The notes beneath the pieces are model-generated. The model was not told where the DNA came from. It worked only from the letters and a program-made list of their open reading frames with translations, and made no database searches. 64,000 bases of DNA. Source: Candidatus Poribacteria bacterium (lineage in GTDB: Bacteria; Poribacteria; WGA-4E; WGA-3G). Positions 5,377-48,358 of the stretch are shown here, in pieces. The stretch covers positions 5,568,001 through 5,632,000 of the forward strand of contig OZ251518.1 of assembly GCA_965242965.1 (NCBI GenBank), written 5' to 3'. Every line of letters begins with the position of its first letter. The stretch's first letter is position 1. Both the position numbers and the translations under genes were made by a program.

Positions 5377-5943
5377 ATGGACCATGAACGAATCCAAAAG
5401 GAATTATCCGCCTATTTAGACGACGAATTGTCGCCGGCGAAGCAGGAACAGGTTGCGGCGCATCTGCGCGACTGCGCCGAGTGTCAGCAGATGTTCAACG
5501 CGTTCAAGCGGAACCGTCGTCGGATTGCCGGCATTAAGTCTACTGTGCCGCCGATAAGGGAAGCAGTAATGGGCCGGATTCGCGCGGGAGAGGTGCTGCA
5601 GCCTGTGCCCGTTTCCCAACGCCTCGGCATCCTCATCAGAGATGCCGCGCTTGCACTGCAATCGCTGAAGGGCACAAGGCACTGGTTCTTCCGTCCGATA
5701 ACGGCAGGAGCTAGCGCGGTTTTGACACTCGCGCTTATCGTGGGATTCCTTTACCTTTATCCGACTGGCACTCACTATGAAGAGGCACTCGATTTCTACT
5801 TCGGCATCCATGCTGAACAGGTGTCGGGGAGCCCGTTGCGTTCAAACGTCGGGACCCCGCTCAGCCGTAGTCTGACAGATTCCATCGCCACCGTTGCCAC
5901 CATTGATGATGCTGAGTTGTTTGAGTTGTATTTGGAGGAGTGA
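5377..5943 (+). CDS. Zinc-finger (zf-HC2) membrane anti-sigma factor
   Basis: LSAYLDDEL..HLRDCAEC plus one TM helix; follows the sigma gene. Confidence 0.88.
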   Translation: MDHERIQKELSAYLDDELSPAKQEQVAAHLRDCAECQQMFNAFKRNRRRIAGIKSTVPPIREAVMGRIRAGEVLQPVPVSQRLGILIRDAALALQSLKGTRHWFFRPITAGASAVLTLALIVGFLYLYPTGTHYEEALDFYFGIHAEQVSGSPLRSNVGTPLSRSLTDSIATVATIDDAELFELYLEE

Positions 5944-5992
5944 GCCTGCGTCGGACAGGTTTCCCTCGCCTTGCGAACGATGGAAATTTTTT

Positions 5993-7009
5993 ATGAAGTA
6001 TCTCAACCTCATTTGTCTCTTGACGTTAACCTTTTGCTTCTGGCCCGCTAGCGCGCCGGTTGCTGATGTTGACACGCTTTGCCGCATCGCGGCGGCCCAG
6101 CGCGATGTCAGTTACGTCGGCGTTCGACTCAAGACGCGCGGTACCGCCAGAGGCACGAAGACGATGGAGGAGCTCGTCATCCATAAAAGTGCCGAGGACT
6201 CCTACCGGAAAGTGTTGTCCATTGTCGGCGAAAAACAGCCCACCGCGCGGGAACACAAACGCGATGCAGACAACAGAACCCGCCGTCGCAGAGGCAGAGA
6301 ACGGGGTAAAGGCAGAGAGTTTAGCAGATGGGAACGCAATCGGAGCCAATTCTCTCAGAAAGAAATCGAACTTATCACCCAAAATTACCATCTGAAAGTG
6401 GAGGATAGAGGCGAGAAAACCTTGGGCCACGAGACTCTCCTCTTAATGATTGAACCGAAACTGCCGCAGCGTCCCTCTAAATATATCACCTTCGCGCGCA
6501 AAAACGGCGTGATTTTGGAGGTGAAAGACATGGACTCGGAAGGCACGCTGCGCGAAATGTTCGCCTATACGCGACTCAGTTTCGAGCCGGAAGTGGTGCA
6601 GGCGCAATGGCAGAAATACCAAGGTGAAATTCACGTCCCACCACGGCGCAGTCAACCGATTTCTTATGAAGAGGCAAGTCGGTTGCTTAATGACAAACTT
6701 GTCCAGCCGGCATACCTGCCGACAGGCTTCCAACTGCTAGAACTTCGGAGCATTAAAGAGAAACGCGCAATTCACCTGACTTACACGGATGGGCTGCTGG
6801 GTTTCTCAATCTTTGAGACTGCCAGGAGTCGGATGCGGGGGGAGCGGCGCGGCGAGAGAATTCACCTCCACGGAACGGATGTCTATAAACACGAACGCGG
6901 GCATGAAGATGTCTTCATCTGGTCCCACGCGGACATCGTCTTTTTCTTATACGGCGCAGTCCCATCTTCCGAAAAGTTGAAGGTGGTTGAGTCTATCATC
7001 AAACGGTGA
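5993..7009 (+). CDS. MucB/RseB-like periplasmic anti-sigma partner
   Basis: Signal peptide; PAYLPTGF..LTYTDGLLGFSIFE C-terminal motif; third gene of the sigma operon. Confidence 0.7.
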   Translation: MKYLNLICLLTLTFCFWPASAPVADVDTLCRIAAAQRDVSYVGVRLKTRGTARGTKTMEELVIHKSAEDSYRKVLSIVGEKQPTAREHKRDADNRTRRRRGRERGKGREFSRWERNRSQFSQKEIELITQNYHLKVEDRGEKTLGHETLLLMIEPKLPQRPSKYITFARKNGVILEVKDMDSEGTLREMFAYTRLSFEPEVVQAQWQKYQGEIHVPPRRSQPISYEEASRLLNDKLVQPAYLPTGFQLLELRSIKEKRAIHLTYTDGLLGFSIFETARSRMRGERRGERIHLHGTDVYKHERGHEDVFIWSHADIVFFLYGAVPSSEKLKVVESIIKR

Positions 7010-41443: not shown

Positions 41444-42115
41444 ATGCACACAATACACAACTGGGAGACATGGCTCGGGACAGACGAGGCAGGGAAAGGT
41501 GATTACTTCGGACCGCTTGTTGTCGCAGGCGTTTACGTGAACGCGGCATGTCGCGAGGCTTTCGAGGCATTAGGGATTACAGATGGGAAGACGCTCTCAA
41601 TCAAGCGTGTCCGGGAACTCGCCGAAGCAATGTGGTGCGACTACGGCGATTCCATCGCTGTTGTGGAAAAGATGCCTGCCGCCTATAACGCGCTCTATGA
41701 CGATTTTCGCCGACGTAGGAAAAACTTGAACCATCTGCTCGGCGCGCTCCATGCGGAGGTTATTGAAACGTTGCACGTTCGCTCGGGCGCGCGGCATGTC
41801 TGTGTCGATAGATTTGCCACCGCGGATGTCATCACGCCGCAGATAGGCACCGCTATTCGGCGCGATTTGCGGATAATACAGGTGCCGAAAGCAGAACGGG
41901 ACATCGCTGTCGCCGCCGCCTCTGTCATCGCTCGCGACGCATTTCTGAGCGGCATGGCGGCGTTATCGGAAAAATACGAGTTTCAATTGCCGCGCGGTTC
42001 CTATCGGGTTACCGAAGCCGGTAAGGAATTTGTCGCGTTGCACGGGGCAGACGCATTGGGAGAGGTTGCGAAGTTGCATTTCAGTCTAACGGATGCTGTC
42101 CTCGCGCGGAAATGA
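41444..42115 (+). CDS. rnhC: Ribonuclease HIII, catalytic domain only
   Basis: GTDEAGKGDYFGPLVV, DRF, KAE..VAAASVIAR, VAKLHF. Confidence 0.8.
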   Translation: MHTIHNWETWLGTDEAGKGDYFGPLVVAGVYVNAACREAFEALGITDGKTLSIKRVRELAEAMWCDYGDSIAVVEKMPAAYNALYDDFRRRRKNLNHLLGALHAEVIETLHVRSGARHVCVDRFATADVITPQIGTAIRRDLRIIQVPKAERDIAVAAASVIARDAFLSGMAALSEKYEFQLPRGSYRVTEAGKEFVALHGADALGEVAKLHFSLTDAVLARK

Positions 42116-42182
42116 TTTCGTCCCGTTTGAAACAAATGGACAAATCGTTCCAGATATATTATATTTTATATTGAGAATTGCC

Positions 42183-42892
42183 TGTAGGAGAGACCTCCTG
42201 GTCTCGATGTTGCCTGATCCGGGCGGGTGCAGGCGCACCCGAACTACAGGGCTAGAGCGCGCCCCGCCTGTAGTTCAGGAGCACCTACTCCTGAACTGTT
42301 TGTGAGCGGCGATAAACTGAGGGTGTTTCATATTTCGATGTGTTCGGTAGGAGAGACCTCCCGGTCTCGATTTGCCCGTAGCGCGGGGGACAGGCCCCCG
42401 CGATCGCCATCGTCAAGAGGGGCGTTTTTAGGTCCTTTAGGACCTACATGTCTATAGAAAAACGTGTTGGCGCGTTGTCAAGGTCCTTTAGGTCCTTAAT
42501 AAAAACACGCGCCGCATGGAAAAACACATTAAGGACCTAAAGGACCTTAGGATTCTTCGCGTGCGCGCGGGCTATAGACATTAAGGTCCTACGGACCTAA
42601 GAACCGTTTTTTTTTCGTAGTGCGGGGCCCTCGGATGCCACACGCGCATCCGAGCGGGGTTCCCTCGCCATCGCTCGCGCGTCAGGCTCTGTAGGTCAGG
42701 ATCGCCTGATCCTGACCCGTTTGTGATCAGGCGATCACAAACTACAGTTGGGGAAACACACATCGGGCCGATAGAGATCGCGGGGGACAGGCCCCCGCCC
42801 TACGGGCACATCGAGACCAGAGGTCTCTCCTACCGGGAACATCGCTTGCATCGGACCGGGAGGGCGCACCATAGGATTTATGAAACACCCTC
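42183..42892. repeat. REP cluster including TIR-bounded element 42319-42892
   Basis: GAGGGTGTTTCATA..TATGAAACACCCTC enclose C, A, E and D units. Confidence 0.85.
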
Positions 42893-42935
42893 ACTTTATA
42901 TTCAGCGGTGTGCAGGAATACAAGGAGATACACCG

Positions 42936-43310
42936 ATGAGAAAAATGGGAGAGTGGCGCGAATCCTTAATCAATGAACTCGCCGAGAATAAGGAGGAAGC
43001 GATTGACTATCTTCAAGTGGTTCTTGAAGAGTCTTATCGCTATGATTGGGATATTGCCGTCTTTTTATACGCGCTAAAAGTCGTTGTAGAGGCACACGGC
43101 GGAATTGCCAAACTGGCGAAGCAAACGCAACTCGCACCGCAAGTCCTCTCAAAAATGCTTTCCGGCGAAGAGGCATTTCCGGTTGATGTTCTCGGTGCTA
43201 TCCTCAAAGCACTCGGATGCCAACTGACAATCGCACCTTTAGTGGCGGCGAACTCTTGTGTGGGACGCACCGGCGAAACCGAGGCAGCGCGCATGGAGAA
43301 TGTCGCATAA
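42936..43310 (+). CDS. Addiction-module antidote-like HTH protein with no adjacent toxin
   Basis: EEAIDYL..ALKVVVEAHGGIAKLA..LSKMLS..ILKALG; AAGGAG RBS. Confidence 0.75.
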   Translation: MRKMGEWRESLINELAENKEEAIDYLQVVLEESYRYDWDIAVFLYALKVVVEAHGGIAKLAKQTQLAPQVLSKMLSGEEAFPVDVLGAILKALGCQLTIAPLVAANSCVGRTGETEAARMENVA

Positions 43311-43364: not shown

Positions 43365-44534
43365 ATGGAAGAACTCTTTATCATTCACTACGCCGAAGTC
43401 GGGTTGAAAGGGAAAAATCGGGCGTTTTTTGAAAAACGGCTGGTGCAGAACATCAAGCAATCGCTGCACGGCACTGGATACGCCGCCGTCAAACGGCTCC
43501 ATGACAGGATTCAGGTGCAACTGGATCCGGACACCGACATCCCCGAAATTAAGAAACGCCTCAGCCGCGTGATGGGCATCGCGCACTTTGAACTCGTCTG
43601 CCGCACCGAAAAGGACATGGCGGCGATTAAAGCGACGGCTCTCCGGCAAACCGAAGACAAGACGTTTCGGACGCTGAAAATTGAGACAAAACGTTCGGAT
43701 AAAACCTTTCCGCTGACTTCTCCGGAAATCAGCGCGGAGGTAGGCGCGTATCTCATCCAACATACTGGCGCGAGCGCCGATATGCATAACCCGGAACTGC
43801 TCTGTCGCATTGAGGTATCCCAAAACGGTGCCTATCTCTACACCGATAAACTGCCGGGCAGCGGCGGGTTGCCTGTCGGTGTGAGTGGCAAGGTGTTGGT
43901 GATGCTTTCGGGTGGTATTGATTCGCCTGTCGCCGCGTGGCGGATGATAAAACGCGGTGCGAAAGCGGTTTTCATTCACTTTTATAGTTATCCCTACACC
44001 GACAAAGCCTCGCTGGAAAAGGTGATGGAGTTGAGCCACATCTTGGCAGAATCGAACTATCGGAGTGCAGTCTATCTCGTTCCCTTCGCCGATGTGCAAC
44101 AAGCCATTGTGGCCGAAACGCCCGCGCCGTTTCGGGTGCTCCTGTATCGGCGGCTGATGACGCGGATTGCGGAACGTGTTGCGGCACTCGTCGATGCGGA
44201 GGCGATTGTCACCGGTGAAAGCCTCGCACAGGTAGCATCGCAGACGTTAACGAATCTGCGCGCAATCGAAGCGATTGCCGATATCCCCATCCTTCGTCCG
44301 CTCATCGGTGATGACAAAGCGGAGATTATCGCGCAGGCGGAGCAAATCGGCACGTTTGCGGTATCCACGTTACCGCATCAGGACTGCTGTTCGCTTTTCG
44401 TTCCGAAGCATCCAGCGACGCGCGCCACCGTCACCGATTTAGAACGTGCTGAGGCAGGTTTGGACATCGCAGCGTTGGTAGAACGCGCGATGGATGGGAT
44501 TGAAAGGCGGGTTGTGAGTTTTTCATACGGATAG
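43365..44534 (+). CDS. thiI: tRNA 4-thiouridine synthase
   Basis: HYAEVGLKGKNR, THUMP domain, SGGIDSPVA, GESLAQVASQT, DCC. Confidence 0.95.
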   Translation: MEELFIIHYAEVGLKGKNRAFFEKRLVQNIKQSLHGTGYAAVKRLHDRIQVQLDPDTDIPEIKKRLSRVMGIAHFELVCRTEKDMAAIKATALRQTEDKTFRTLKIETKRSDKTFPLTSPEISAEVGAYLIQHTGASADMHNPELLCRIEVSQNGAYLYTDKLPGSGGLPVGVSGKVLVMLSGGIDSPVAAWRMIKRGAKAVFIHFYSYPYTDKASLEKVMELSHILAESNYRSAVYLVPFADVQQAIVAETPAPFRVLLYRRLMTRIAERVAALVDAEAIVTGESLAQVASQTLTNLRAIEAIADIPILRPLIGDDKAEIIAQAEQIGTFAVSTLPHQDCCSLFVPKHPATRATVTDLERAEAGLDIAALVERAMDGIERRVVSFSYG

Positions 44535-44684
44535 ACTGAAAACGAAAAACTCAATCCCTCTGAACTTCTTCCTTGTTTTTTTGCCAGAGATATGGTAGAC
44601 TTAAATTAACTGGCGGCAGACAGGGTGGTTACATGAGTTTTCTGGCTCGTCTGTGTGATATTGCAACGCTCTTCGGAGGAAGAT

Positions 44685-46707
44685 ATGAAGGTAAACATCT
44701 CACAACTGAAATCCGATGACTTAGGCACAGTGGATATGCTAATGAAGCGTTCCAGTCAGACACTTGGTTTTCTGCCCATGCAAGCTTTGGAAAGTTATCT
44801 TGAAAAAGGAACTGTGCTGGGAGCGAAGACTGACGCGGGTGAACTCGTTGGTTACCTGCTTTACGCGGCCTATCCGAATTACTTCCGGATTACGCATCTC
44901 TGCGTGTCGGAAGAATACCAAGGACAAGGTATCGCGAAGCGTCTTGTCAAGACGTTAAAGATGTCTGCCGACACCCAGAAAGTAATCAAACTTCATTGTC
45001 GGCGCGATTTTCCGGCGAATGATTTGTGGCCCAAACTAGGATTCGTGGCCCTGGGTGAAAAATCCGGCAGATCCAAGGCAGGACACCGCCTCACAATCTG
45101 GCACTTTAGGCTAGCTCCCGAAGACCAGATGGAACTTTTTCAGGCAGCAACGTCCGATGACACTCTTGACATCATCATTGATGCCCAAATCTTCTTCGAT
45201 TTTGATGAGCCAGATAGCGATAAAGCTCAGCCATCTAAGGCACTGCTGTCAGACTTCTTAGTCGATTCGCTTAACCTCTGGATTACGGACGAACTGCTGA
45301 ACGAAATCAACCGGCAGGAAAATCGCGAGAAACGTGAAAATTCCCGGCGTAGGACTCATCGTTTTCCGAAAGTAGCGTGCCAGCCACACCTCGTTGAAGA
45401 ATTCGAGAGACGTTTAAGGGGACTCCTGCCTGAACGTAAGGCAAGCCAAGGGTCTGATATTAGACAATTAGCGAGGGCTGCCGCTTCGCCCATCAAAACC
45501 TTTGTCACCAAAGACCACGCTCTTTTGGAAAAGGTAGAGAAAATCGGGGAGCTGACGGGGCTTGAGGTAATCAACCCCGTGGACTTAATCGTCCGACTTC
45601 ATGAGTTGTCCGAAAAGCAAACCTACGCGCCAGATTATATTGCAGGGCTTAATCTTCGTTGGGCTCGCTTGGCTTCAAATGAGCTAACCTCTTTGCACCT
45701 TGAGGCTTTTCTCAAACCTCAGGAGACGAAAGGTAAATTTAGAGAGAAATTGGAATCCTTGGTCGCCCAAGTCGATCATTATGAATGCGAACTTCTCCGG
45801 TCTGGGGATAAGGTTATCGCCATCCGAGTTCTCACAGTCGGTTCTAATAAGGTGCTTACCGCTCCGTTGGCGAGAGTTGCCCATTCTGCAGATCAAGTGC
45901 TATTCGGCCGCTTTTTAATCGCGGACGCTATTTCCAAGGCGGTGGAAGAGAATCTGGACCTGGTCAGATTTGAAACAGCCGAGCTCACTCCCAACTTAAT
46001 GCCATGCTTGTTAGAGATGGGATTTATCGCGGGTAACGGCAGTTTTGTGAGGTTTTGCTTCTCGCGTTGTTTGCGTCGCGAAGAAGTCTTGGCTGCGATT
46101 TCTGAATCATGTCCTGAATCTGTGAGCAGGTATCAGGAGATGTCACCCCGTGAACTTGAAAGGTGTTGTTCTCCTCTTGTTAAGGTGTTGTTCTCCTCTT
46201 GTTCTAGAACCGACAGAACAGGAATGCTTTTTGATTCCCATTCTCCCATTCTACGCGACTGGACTCATTGACAGGCATCAGTCAGGAGCAGAACTCTTTA
46301 GGGAGAATCCCAATGTTCTATTGCGTTGGGATAATGTGTACTACCGAGCCGCAAATCGGCACAAGATGCTCAAACCGCCGGCACGCATTTTGTGGTATGT
46401 CAGCAGTCCAAGGCAACAAATCATCGCCGTGTCCTGTCTTGACGATGTCTTAATTGATACCACTAAGGAACTTTTCAGACAATTCCGAAAATTTGGGATT
46501 CTGGAATGGAGGGACCTTTTTAAGATGTGCAATCGCGACCCGTTCAAACAACTGATGGCGTTGAAATTTTCGCACACTTTCCTCTTTCGGAAACCCGTTT
46601 CATTGGCGACGATGAGAGAGATAGGCATCTCGCATCCACAAGCCCCTTTGAAAATATCGCCTGAAATCTTCCAAGAATTTTTTCAGAGAGGATATCCGAA
46701 CCAATGA
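44685..46707 (+). pseudogene. GNAT-PIN-(EVE/ASCH-like) multidomain gene split by a frameshift
   Basis: GNAT (LCVSEEYQGQGIA), PIN (IIDAQIF..E..DIRQLA..FVTKD). ORFs 44685-46271 and 46150-46707 join into 666 aa if one 22-bp repeat copy is removed. Confidence 0.8.
46160..46203 (+). repeat. Perfect 22-bp tandem duplication
   Basis: AAGGTGTTGTTCTCCTCTTGTT occurs twice in tandem. Confidence 0.97.
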
Positions 46708-47225
46708 CGAACACTACAATGCCCCCATTGCTTCTTTCTTTGAAGCCTTGCTACGCGGAACTAGTCTTTGAAGGGCTCAAAACGGCTGAACTTCGGCGGC
46801 GTATCGCTTTGGATATGGAGAATCGCGACGTGTTCATTTACGTTTCCAGTCCTGTTATGGCACTGCGCGGCGGGTTCCGTGTGGGACAGGTGTGGCGTGA
46901 TACACCCGATAAAGTGTGGGACATAGTCTCCGAACTCGCGCGGGTTGAAAAGCAGGATTTCGACACCTATTTTGCGGGAAAAACTGTCGCTTGCGCCTTT
47001 GAAATCAGAAAGGTTTGGGAATACGAAAACCCTGTCAGCCTCAACATGTTGAGAGAACAGTTTCCCAACTTCGTTGTCCCGCAGTCATGGCGGTATGTTC
47101 GCGATGATGAACACCTATTTTTCAGGTTTTTCCGGACAACGCGCATGAAACCTACGAAAGAATCCTATCGTGAGAAACGTCAAGTAGGCGGCAAACCGTT
47201 GCGTGCTCAACACCTCTATCTTTGA
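46704..47225 (+). CDS. ASCH domain protein
   Basis: LLSLKPCYAELVFEGLKTAELRR, YVSSP, PQSWRY; ATGA overlap with the upstream gene. Confidence 0.85.
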   Translation: MTNTTMPPLLLSLKPCYAELVFEGLKTAELRRRIALDMENRDVFIYVSSPVMALRGGFRVGQVWRDTPDKVWDIVSELARVEKQDFDTYFAGKTVACAFEIRKVWEYENPVSLNMLREQFPNFVVPQSWRYVRDDEHLFFRFFRTTRMKPTKESYREKRQVGGKPLRAQHLYL

Positions 47226-47260
47226 GGCTTCAACTTAACCCCAGTGCCCAATAGAGAACC

Positions 47261-48358
47261 ATGCAAAACATATTGCTTATTCGGCTCAGTTCACTCGGCG
47301 ATGTTATGTTGACAACACCAGCCATCCGCGCGGTGCGCACACACTTCCCACACGCGCACATCGCTATGCTCGTCGCCAAGCAATCCGCCGATGTCCTGCG
47401 CGAAAATCCTCATCTCAATGAGCTCATCCCATTCAATAGACTCGCCGCTGACAAAGATACTGGCGAGATGTGGCGGGTTCTCCGCACGCTACGCAAACGG
47501 AAATTCTCGCTGACGATTGACTTCCAAGGGAAATGCCGGACAGAAGTATTGGCGTATCTCAGCGGTGCCGCCGAACGCGTCGGAAAAGGGAGGTTATGCA
47601 CCGTGCGCGCGCCTGACGCAGCGGCGGTGACGCATGCAACCGAACGAAACCTTGCCTTGCTACACGCCATCGGCATTCCAGCCGAAGACAGGACGTTAGA
47701 GATGTTTCTCACCGAATCTGAACGCGAAGAAGCTTGCCAGCGGTTTGAAGCAGCCGGCATCGCGAGGAGGCGCAACACCGCAGTCCCGATAGTTGGCATG
47801 TTTCCCGGCGCAGGATGGAAACTGCGCGAATGGATGCCGGAACGGTTCGCTGCCATCGGCGATAAACTAGTGCGGCACTTTAACGCACACGTGCTGATTT
47901 TCGGCGGGCCTCGGGAGGTTGGATTGGTGGACACCGTCGCGAATCTGATGCACGCTCCCGCAACTCGGTTTGCTGGCAAGTTACAGATTCGGCAGCTCGC
48001 GGCGTGTATTGAAAAGTGCTCCCTCTTCCTCACCAACGACACCGGCCCGATGCATATCGCCTCGGCAGTGGGAACGCCTACCGTTGCGCTGTTCGGGCCC
48101 GGCAATCACTACCGATTTCAACCCCTCGGCGTTTTGCACCAGACTATCCGTCACGATGTGCCGTGTAGTCCGTGTAAGCAGTTTACGGATAAATGCAAAG
48201 ACAACGTCTGCATGAAGCAGATTCGTGTCAATGAGGTATGGGAGGCAGTAAGGGCACGATTACAAAGCGCGTCTATCCACACGCCGCCTCAAAAACGCGG
48301 AGGTGATTCCCACCTAGCACCTTCTGGATATCCTCATCGGAATAGCCGCGCGCGCTGA
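47261..48358 (+). CDS. Glycosyltransferase family 9 (heptosyltransferase-like)
   Basis: RLSSLGDV, PGA..W, NDTGPMHIA..LFGP. Confidence 0.9.
   Translation: MQNILLIRLSSLGDVMLTTPAIRAVRTHFPHAHIAMLVAKQSADVLRENPHLNELIPFNRLAADKDTGEMWRVLRTLRKRKFSLTIDFQGKCRTEVLAYLSGAAERVGKGRLCTVRAPDAAAVTHATERNLALLHAIGIPAEDRTLEMFLTESEREEACQRFEAAGIARRRNTAVPIVGMFPGAGWKLREWMPERFAAIGDKLVRHFNAHVLIFGGPREVGLVDTVANLMHAPATRFAGKLQIRQLAACIEKCSLFLTNDTGPMHIASAVGTPTVALFGPGNHYRFQPLGVLHQTIRHDVPCSPCKQFTDKCKDNVCMKQIRVNEVWEAVRARLQSASIHTPPQKRGGDSHLAPSGYPHRNSRAR

Follow-up and report, generated by a model that had tools for sequence, protein, structure and literature searches.

Gene content of the locus

We analysed a 64,000-nucleotide stretch of the genome of a Candidatus Poribacteria bacterium (GenBank assembly GCA_965242965.1, contig OZ251518.1, forward-strand positions 5,568,001 to 5,632,000), hereafter the window, and focus on a two-gene module that lies on its + strand between thiI and a family-9 glycosyltransferase (GT9) gene. 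The interval between these two genes contains three open reading frames (ORFs; 44655/44685..46271, 46150..46707 and 46704..47225, counted from the first letter of the window), of which the first two together are one gene, A, and the third is gene B. The stop codon of A and the start codon of B share the sequence ATGA at 46704-46707, making A and B a translationally coupled pair. The pair is probably a copy of a candidate anti-phage, abortive-infection or toxin-like module of the (PIN)-GNAT-PUA plus ASCH class, associated with restriction-modification (R-M) systems and inactive in this genome. Its features are as follows:

44675..44679, + strand: GGAGG ribosome-binding site, 5 nt 5′ of the gene A ATG at 44685, read from the sequence
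44685..46707, + strand: gene A, a pseudogene split over two frames that overlap (44685-46271 and 46150-46707); taken together, they can be aligned with intact homologues of about 670 aa over the full length
44685..45116, + strand: GNAT1, N-terminal acetyltransferase domain of A with motif A RGxGIA (Pfam Acetyltransf_10, 1.1e-12; fold match Ard1 4pv6_D)
45162..45584, + strand: VapC-like PIN domain of A (fold match VapC11, Z 12.1; four invariant acidic residues)
45642..46064, + strand: GNAT2, internal GNAT fold of A without the acetyl-CoA motif A (fold match 8osp_C; consensus without the glycine motif)
46160..46203, + strand: perfect tandem duplication of 22 bp, AAGGTGTTGTTCTCCTCTTGTT twice (TRF: period 22, 2.0 copies, 100% match)
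46204..46707, + strand: C-terminal domain of A, ASCH-like (PUA superfamily) and no longer in frame with the rest (PDC-M11A 5.1e-9, PDC-M11B 5.3e-6, hhalign and Foldseek)
46704..47225, + strand: gene B, intact, encoding a 173-aa ASCH protein (PADLOC PDC-M11B 1.3e-30; family profile against ZmASCH 2.4e-20)

The 5′ neighbour of the module, on the same strand, is thiI at 43365..44534 (Pfam ThiI, 8.5e-67), and its 3′ neighbour is GT9 at 47261..48358 (Pfam, 7.1e-36). An original prediction, made for this DNA from its letters alone, had placed a coupled pair between these two genes, and the ORF positions and the ATGA overlap agree with its coordinates and gene order. The start at 44685 is likely for gene A, because a GGAGG site is present and because most homologues share this start. 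The nearest relative of A, the 683-aa homologue P0002, starts 17 codons 5′ of the MKV start; the matching ATG of the window, at 44634, is out of frame with 44685.

The module has a GC content of 48.25%, compared with a window mean of 54.5% (standard deviation 1.8; 615 sliding windows of 2541 bp). Only 0.33% of the sliding windows are as GC-poor as the module, and all ten lowest overlap it; the stretch that had been described as visibly AT-rich thus has the lowest GC content of the window. In addition, the GC content at third codon positions is 0.50-0.53 in the module genes, compared with 0.61-0.63 in the flanking genes. A promoter and terminator scan of 44400-47400 returned two promoter-like sites and one terminator-like site, not above the level of shuffled sequence.

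Gene A is disrupted by a 22-bp tandem duplication

Alignment with intact homologues reveals that the 22-bp duplication shifts the frame of gene A, with the break directly after the peptide ERCCSPLV. Specifically, the first frame is colinear with the homologues up to ERCCSPLV, and the second frame resumes at the same peptide and runs to the end. P0002 is 94% identical over the first frame and 92% identical over the second. The original prediction had called the stretch repeat-free, which does not hold, since the perfect duplication sits at 46160-46203.

Contigs from sequencing runs of several studies cover the break. Those of runs X1 and X2, from two studies, show zero differences over 1201 bases around the break, duplication included, although one of the two runs may itself be the source of the assembly. 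A contig of run X6, from a third study, is 98% identical; it differs at 24 positions and, at 46160, is shorter by exactly 22 bases. Across about 46108-46500, run X5 is without a contig and proves nothing on the duplication. The comparison of contigs cannot tell whether the population is mixed for the duplication. Two explanations of the two frames were rejected: programmed frameshifting, in view of an exact 22-bp duplication that contigs from two studies carry and a 98%-identical contig lacks, and assembly error, on the same comparison of contigs. The existence of a 98%-identical strain with the intact allele indicates that the duplication is a recent strain-level mutation. Gene A of this genome is a pseudogene, and the module is most likely switched off.

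In all four runs, extra short contigs of other depth match only a piece of about 35 bases at 46555-46589, with two to three differences, and continue into unlike sequence. The piece encodes the conserved peptide ALKFSHTF of the C-terminal domain of A, and other organisms in the same samples probably carry homologues.

Protein A contains four domains

To describe protein A we used two structural models. The first is of P0002, predicted by AlphaFold2 from 74 full-length homologues with a mean pLDDT of 92.6 and a pTM of 0.87. The second covers the window's own unbroken stretch 45129-46172 (PIN and GNAT2), has a pLDDT of 95.2 and was compared with 48,161 PDB representatives; this part was folded alone because GNAT1 filled the VIA match list of the full model, leaving no ranges for the other domains. 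As modelled, protein A is composed of four domains, GNAT1, PIN, GNAT2 and an ASCH-like C-terminus. The GNAT, the PIN domain, the PUA-like C-terminus and the stand-alone ASCH protein of the original prediction are all confirmed, whereas the fourth domain, the internal GNAT fold, had been missed.

GNAT1 (residues 18-161 of the P0002 model) superimposes on Ard1 4pv6_D with a Z of 20.6 and a root-mean-square deviation (rmsd) of 1.7 over 141 aligned residues, and on RimI with a Z of 20.0. Its acetyl-CoA motif, of consensus RGxGIA, reads QGQGIA in the window; across the 74 sequences G99 is invariant and A101 nearly so. The PIN domain (residues 12-152 of the second model) matches VapC11 6a7v_A over 126 aligned residues with an rmsd of 2.7, and VapC15 4chg_A with a Z of 12.0. 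Its acidic residues are D18, E55, D110 and D129 (residue 1 is the one encoded at 45129). All four are invariant across 75 sequences, that of the window among them, and the region has no Pfam PIN match at E≤0.1. GNAT2 (residues 172-312) matches 8osp_C with a Z of 13.5 and an rmsd of 2.9 over 136 aligned residues, and many other GNATs match too. At the motif position its consensus in the 74 sequences is PLxRxxxxxxxxTxxRxL, with no R/Q-x-x-G-x-G/A. The PIN-associated GNAT-like domain described by Matelska et al. (2017) likewise lacks this motif A.

The C-terminus of A (last 170 residues) forms a beta-rich domain with a weak sequence match to PADLOC PDC-M11B (5.3e-6), and it aligns with the B family by hhalign (68%, E 4.7e-5). 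A Foldseek search with the full model of A lists ZmASCH chains (5y6b_B, TMt 0.84, rmsd 2.4); its output carries no ranges, and we infer that the match belongs to the C-terminus. Among PDB sequences, the profile of the full-length A family finds GNAT entries only, the PIN and C-terminal domains being invisible by sequence, and the profile of the C-terminal domain finds nothing below an E of 0.68. The A family comprises 879 clusters at E≤1e-30, and the four-domain form is common: by a count of listed lengths, 640 aa is reached or exceeded in at least 129 of the 150 best clusters at 50% identity.

Gene B encodes a homologue of ZmASCH

The match of B to Pfam ASCH (0.0075) lies below the cut-off, and 793 of 839 candidate sequences are homologues of B at E≤0.001. 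The profile of the B family, built from 26 homologues, matches ZmASCH of Zymomonas mobilis (5GUS/5GUQ) with an E of 2.4e-20, the match spanning 136 of 167 positions. The work of Kim et al. (2017, Sci Rep) reports that nucleic acids are bound by ZmASCH, which also cleaves single-stranded RNA (ssRNA) in a Mg-dependent manner, and that Tyr47, Lys53 and Ser128 contribute to RNA binding and cleavage. Tyr47 and Ser128 align with Y46 and S128 of B, the latter in the motif PQSWRY, and both are invariant in the 26 sequences, whereas Lys53 aligns with a variable position, M52 in the B of the window. ZmASCH was studied alone, and B may, by homology, cleave RNA.

Against all PDB sequences, the four matches of the B profile at E≤10 are all ZmASCH entries, with no YqfB, a silence that does not exclude a distant relation. 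By sequence, B is a homologue of ZmASCH and not detectably of YqfB. The proposal that B acts as an eraser draws on YqfB and is not supported by this search, whose matches are to a reported ssRNA nuclease. An A-B complex prediction from full-length A and B alignments scored 0.00 in two runs without controls and speaks neither way.

These domains bear on an alternative, the writer/reader/eraser idea of the original prediction, in which the module is a nucleic-acid acetylation system: the GNAT would acetylate a DNA or RNA base, the PUA-like domain would target or read it, and the ASCH protein would remove or read the mark, which would serve as an epigenetic self-mark or a modification sensor. We consider this unlikely. 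It draws support from the acetyl-CoA motif kept by GNAT1, from the two PUA-superfamily domains of the module and from YqfB, which according to a review shows that an ASCH fold can hydrolyse N4-acylcytosines. The PDB matches of B do not favour it; moreover, the best folds of GNAT1 are protein N-alpha-acetyltransferases, and the conserved active site of the PIN domain would have no obvious role in pure marking.

Relation to predicted classes and characterised systems

We compared the pair with the profile models of PADLOC, without the thresholds of that program. B matches the three PDC-M11B models PDLC04425 (1.3e-30, positions 3-126 of 132), PDLC04424 (2.2e-28) and PDLC04423 (2e-14). A matches the PDC-M11A models weakly, the first frame with PDLC04421 (2.1e-7, model positions 2-159 of 486) and the second with PDLC04422 (5.1e-9, model positions 320-492 of 501), and the middle of A is unmatched. 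The two genes of PDC-M11 are arranged as they are here, the first for a large protein with a PIN domain and a C-terminal PUA-like part and the second for a small ASCH protein, and loci related to the window pair are, like PDC-M11, embedded in or beside R-M systems. In contrast to the window family, the PDC-M11A models, of 486-501 positions, start at the PIN domain (window residues 172-331 correspond to model positions 2-159); in the window family, about 160 further residues at the N-terminus form a GNAT with an intact acetyl-CoA motif. The PDC systems are described by Payne et al. (2024, preprint) as 145 untested candidates embedded in BREX, DISARM or type I R-M systems (guilt-by-embedding).

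Two papers describe the same class. Matelska et al. (2017, NAR) report a PIN_15/PIN_17 class with GNAT and PUA-like domains, and Bell et al. (2020, BMC Biol) report (PIN)-GNAT-EVE operons with an ASCH gene near type I R-M systems; both predict a toxin-antitoxin (TA) or defence role. Both also credit Iyer et al. (2013) with proposing that DNA bases are acetylated and that RNA serves as the guide or the substrate, a point in favour of the acetylation alternative. The operons resemble ours in the order of PIN, GNAT-like domain without motif A and PUA-like domain, in the second PUA-like (ASCH) gene, in the R-M association, in their sporadic distribution and in the lack of experimental data. They differ in three respects. 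First, A of the window has an extra canonical GNAT before the PIN domain, which the passages of these papers on that class do not mention. Second, the window branch has neither the AAA_17 ATPase nor the helix-turn-helix (HTH) fusion on the ASCH protein. Third, its R-M neighbours are of the Eco57I/MmeI and N6_N4/ResIII types besides type I. The original prediction had seen in the pair a candidate TA or defence module, with similar architectures predicted bioinformatically and no experimental characterisation known to it. Others have indeed predicted the class as such (Matelska 2017, Bell 2020 and the PADLOC candidate PDC-M11), and our literature searches found no experimental characterisation, in agreement with the statement of Bell et al. 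that none of these modules is characterised. The locus is a pseudogenised member of this predicted class, in a variant with an extra GNAT.

Two families of toxins were compared with A. VapBC systems consist of a stand-alone VapC PIN protein and an upstream VapB antitoxin. The PIN domain of the window has the same fold and the four conserved acidic residues, but it is an internal domain of a protein of about 670 aa, and the upstream gene is thiI rather than a VapB-type antitoxin gene. GNAT toxins of the TacT/AtaT/KacT type are small, stand-alone proteins with an adjacent antitoxin of the ribbon-helix-helix (RHH)/DUF1778 type, and they acetylate aminoacyl-tRNA. GNAT1, in contrast, is one domain of the large protein, with no RHH/DUF1778-type antitoxin gene adjacent, and no TacT/AtaT/KacT-type name occurs among the matches of A that were listed, 60 to PDB sequences and 50 to folds.

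A functional analogy may exist with Metis and PUA-Cal-HAD, described in preprints, in which a PUA-superfamily sensor is fused to an effector and a second small enzyme is encoded in the operon. Their PUA sensors are reported to detect methylated nucleotides from degraded host DNA, and defence by Metis to depend on host DNA methylases. The analogy lies in the fusion of sensor and effector and in the second small gene; the effectors of these systems, as described, belong to the calcineurin-like and HAD enzymes and have NAD+ or dNTPs as substrates, whereas A has PIN and GNAT domains.

Association with restriction-modification genes

To place the pair in its genomic context, we scanned one genome per species with six peptide patterns from one query, which gave a biased, partly related sample of 14 loci: three from Poribacteria, two from Latescibacterota, one each from Binatia and Nitrospirales, two from Gammaproteobacteria, three from Dehalococcoidia and two from further metagenome-assembled genomes (MAGs). 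B lies directly 3′ of A at all 14, and also at 7 of 7 loci of relatives, some of which may belong to the same genomes as the 14. According to Pfam matches of 86 flanking ORFs, 11 of the 14 loci have a gene for a DNA methyltransferase or for R-M specificity no more than 4 kb away:

L001 to L004 and L012: methyltransferases of the Eco57I/MmeI type, immediately upstream or one gene away
L005 and L007: type I M or S genes upstream
L010 and L013: N6_N4 methylase upstream and ResIII gene downstream, the pair lying between mod and res on one strand
L014: N6_N4 methylase overlapping the end of B
L011: N6_N4 methylase two genes away

The original prediction had regarded homologues unlinked to ASCH genes or defence loci as evidence against it; the ASCH gene is present at 14 of 14 loci and R-M genes at 11 of 14. 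In Latescibacterota, Gammaproteobacteria and Dehalococcoidia the pair lies inside R-M operons, on the same strand. Further neighbours among the 14 loci include ThsB-TIR, TIR, Schlafen, HEPN/RES, PIN and PLD-SNF2 genes. The recurrence of DNA methyltransferases and restriction subunits as partners links the module to DNA modification no less than to RNA acetylation, and the presence of DNA-modifying enzymes also fits the modification theme of the acetylation alternative.

At L010 (834-9676) and L013 (1071-9661), both in gammaproteobacterial MAGs, the pair sits between an N6_N4 methylase of about 1000 aa and a ResIII-type protein of about 1045 aa in a mod-res-like operon. In the two Latescibacterota loci (L005 7867-8953 and L007 5072-6164), B precedes two genes, one of the RusA family and one that is AHJR-like with a restriction-endonuclease fold, which may be further components there.

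The pair also occurs on plasmids of Calothrix, Nostoc and Caulobacter. On a plasmid of Calothrix sp. PCC 6303, A is only 27.5% identical, and its partner is still a B homologue (hhalign 99.4%). This compact island (L033, plasmid pCAL6303.01, 3844-11548) encodes a C5 DNA methylase, an Eco29kI endonuclease, A of 712 aa, a B-like protein of 164 aa with a weak EVE match, an AAA_5 ATPase and a McrC-family protein. A Nostoc plasmid (Nostoc CENA543) carries A, a small partner and an AAA ATPase.

PIN and GNAT domains are common toxin domains of TA systems. A second alternative is a plain addiction module, with A as the toxin (through PIN, GNAT or both) and B as the antidote, which would stabilise mobile R-M or defence islands and plasmids with no direct anti-phage role. 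The domains of A, the translational coupling of A and B and the occurrence on plasmids fit this view, and Matelska et al. (2017) and Bell et al. (2020) file the class under TA systems. Against it, B comes after the toxin-like gene and, at 173 aa, has no recognised DNA-binding antitoxin domain in this branch by Pfam; furthermore, the pair lies inside same-strand R-M operons, which counts as a defence signal in guilt-by-embedding work. As the explanation of the pair we judge it improbable, with the reservation that TA and defence roles are not mutually exclusive.

Repeated loss of gene A

The disruption of A in the window is not an isolated event. Among 15 copies (the window and the 14 loci, a small and partly related sample), A is broken in four by four different events, and B is open in all 15:

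Window copy: 22-bp tandem duplication in A
L005 (Latescibacterota MAG), 5614-6789: Mutator/IS256-family transposase gene (Pfam 6e-127) in A, between the internal GNAT fold and the C-terminal domain
L007: internal deletion in A
L014, 2794-4000: 1.2-kb insertion that splits A ~50 residues into the PIN region, immediately behind the first PIN strand

The insertion in L014 contains a 302-aa reverse-strand ORF without a Pfam match at 1e-5 and has no Rfam match at E≤0.01. Loss of A alone, with B kept, is the pattern expected if A is costly or toxic. It fits a toxic effector better than the protective mark of the acetylation alternative, and it is also consistent with an addiction module.

Insertion and distribution in the lineage

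This genome has one copy of the module. Full-length matches occur in 7 of 40 relatives, and three more relatives have weak matches at the level of the GNAT only. A genome of the same genus has thiI, A, B and GT9 in the same order with A open, and in 5 of 5 relatives of the same family that have no module thiI adjoins GT9. The latter arrangement indicates that the pair was inserted here and is accessory rather than part of thiI function.

ThiI makes 4-thiouridine in tRNA, and a third alternative is that the module is a housekeeping RNA-modification accessory linked to thiI, whose GNAT and PUA proteins act on tRNA in normal metabolism. It could appeal to the position of the module directly 3′ of thiI on the same strand and to the frequency of PUA and ASCH domains in RNA-modifying enzymes noted by Bell et al. 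(2020). The relatives speak otherwise, as the module is confined to 7 of 40 of them; no thiI occurs among the flanking Pfam matches of the 14 loci from other lineages, the GC content is foreign, and A is broken here in a genome that keeps thiI. We regard this alternative as highly improbable, and a role tied to thiI was rejected on the synteny of the five module-free relatives.

The runs that contain the stretch include sponge metagenomes, and the named homologues come from Poribacteria. The identity of A across phyla, at 46-61%, may point to exchange among such symbionts. From the patchy distribution, the insertion and the foreign GC content we infer that the pair is a horizontally acquired, mobile copy.

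Proposed mechanism and its weighing

If the module is the candidate anti-phage or toxin-like system that we favour, the ASCH-type domains of A and B would gate the effector by binding a modified base, nucleotide or nucleic acid. Upon a phage-linked trigger, the large protein A would act as this effector: its PIN domain would cut RNA, and GNAT1 may acetylate a component of translation, as its fold neighbours hint, or nucleic acid, as earlier authors proposed. Growth would then stop and the infection would be aborted, and B would restrain or tune A. The original prediction of a writer/reader/eraser or modification-sensing anti-phage system is partly supported: the pair belongs to a class predicted to act in TA or defence, and the YqfB-based eraser is not supported.

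The link to methyltransferases could be accommodated by two models. PrrC is known as a guard of an R-M system, and in the first model the module would be a PrrC-like guard; Payne et al. (2024) note the embedding of PrrC. In the second, by analogy with Metis and PUA-Cal-HAD, it would sense methylated nucleotides from degraded host DNA. A more specific form of the latter idea, also built on that analogy and in our estimate quite unlikely, is a methylome guard: the ASCH-type domains would read methylated or modified mono- or oligonucleotides freed when a phage degrades host DNA marked by the neighbouring methyltransferase, A would be a novel type of dual effector with a VapC-like RNase and a true acetyltransferase, and B would hold the basal signal down, as MisB does in Metis. 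Such a guard would explain the frequent wiring into mod-res operons and the decay of A alone.

Several observations weigh against a defence module. Three of the 14 loci (L006, L008 and L009) have no methyltransferase nearby. The window copy and that of the same-genus relative are flanked by housekeeping genes, not by a defence island, and no methyltransferase or specificity gene lies by the window copy. A search of 50,697 phage records gave no match to A, and no trigger is known. The matches of A to PDC-M11A are weak and partial, and the nearest solved folds of GNAT1 are protein N-terminal (N-alpha) acetyltransferases, not tRNA-acetylating toxins. The four broken copies among 15 could also reflect ordinary decay of accessory genes in MAGs.

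Comparative genomics had singled out the class itself by 2017 at the latest (with a 2013 analysis cited there), and it is the PADLOC candidate PDC-M11. New here are a confident four-domain model, according to which a common branch carries an additional, apparently catalytic GNAT; a solved and assayed homologue of the small partner, ZmASCH; clear cases of the pair between mod and res genes; and named cultured carriers, the plasmids of Calothrix PCC 6303 and Nostoc CENA543. If the module does serve in defence, it would combine RNA cleavage with acetylation in a single effector controlled by PUA-type sensing. Since the window copy is a recent pseudogene, the locus is of interest chiefly because it points to the family, and it also illustrates how such a gene can be turned off in nature.

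A small gene upstream of thiI

Just 5′ of thiI, at 42936-43310 on the + strand, lies a small HTH gene that matches the 'addiction module antidote' family dnstrm_HI1420 (8.5e-7). Because none of the four small ORFs in 42093-42933 has a Pfam match at 0.01, it looks like an orphan antitoxin-type gene.

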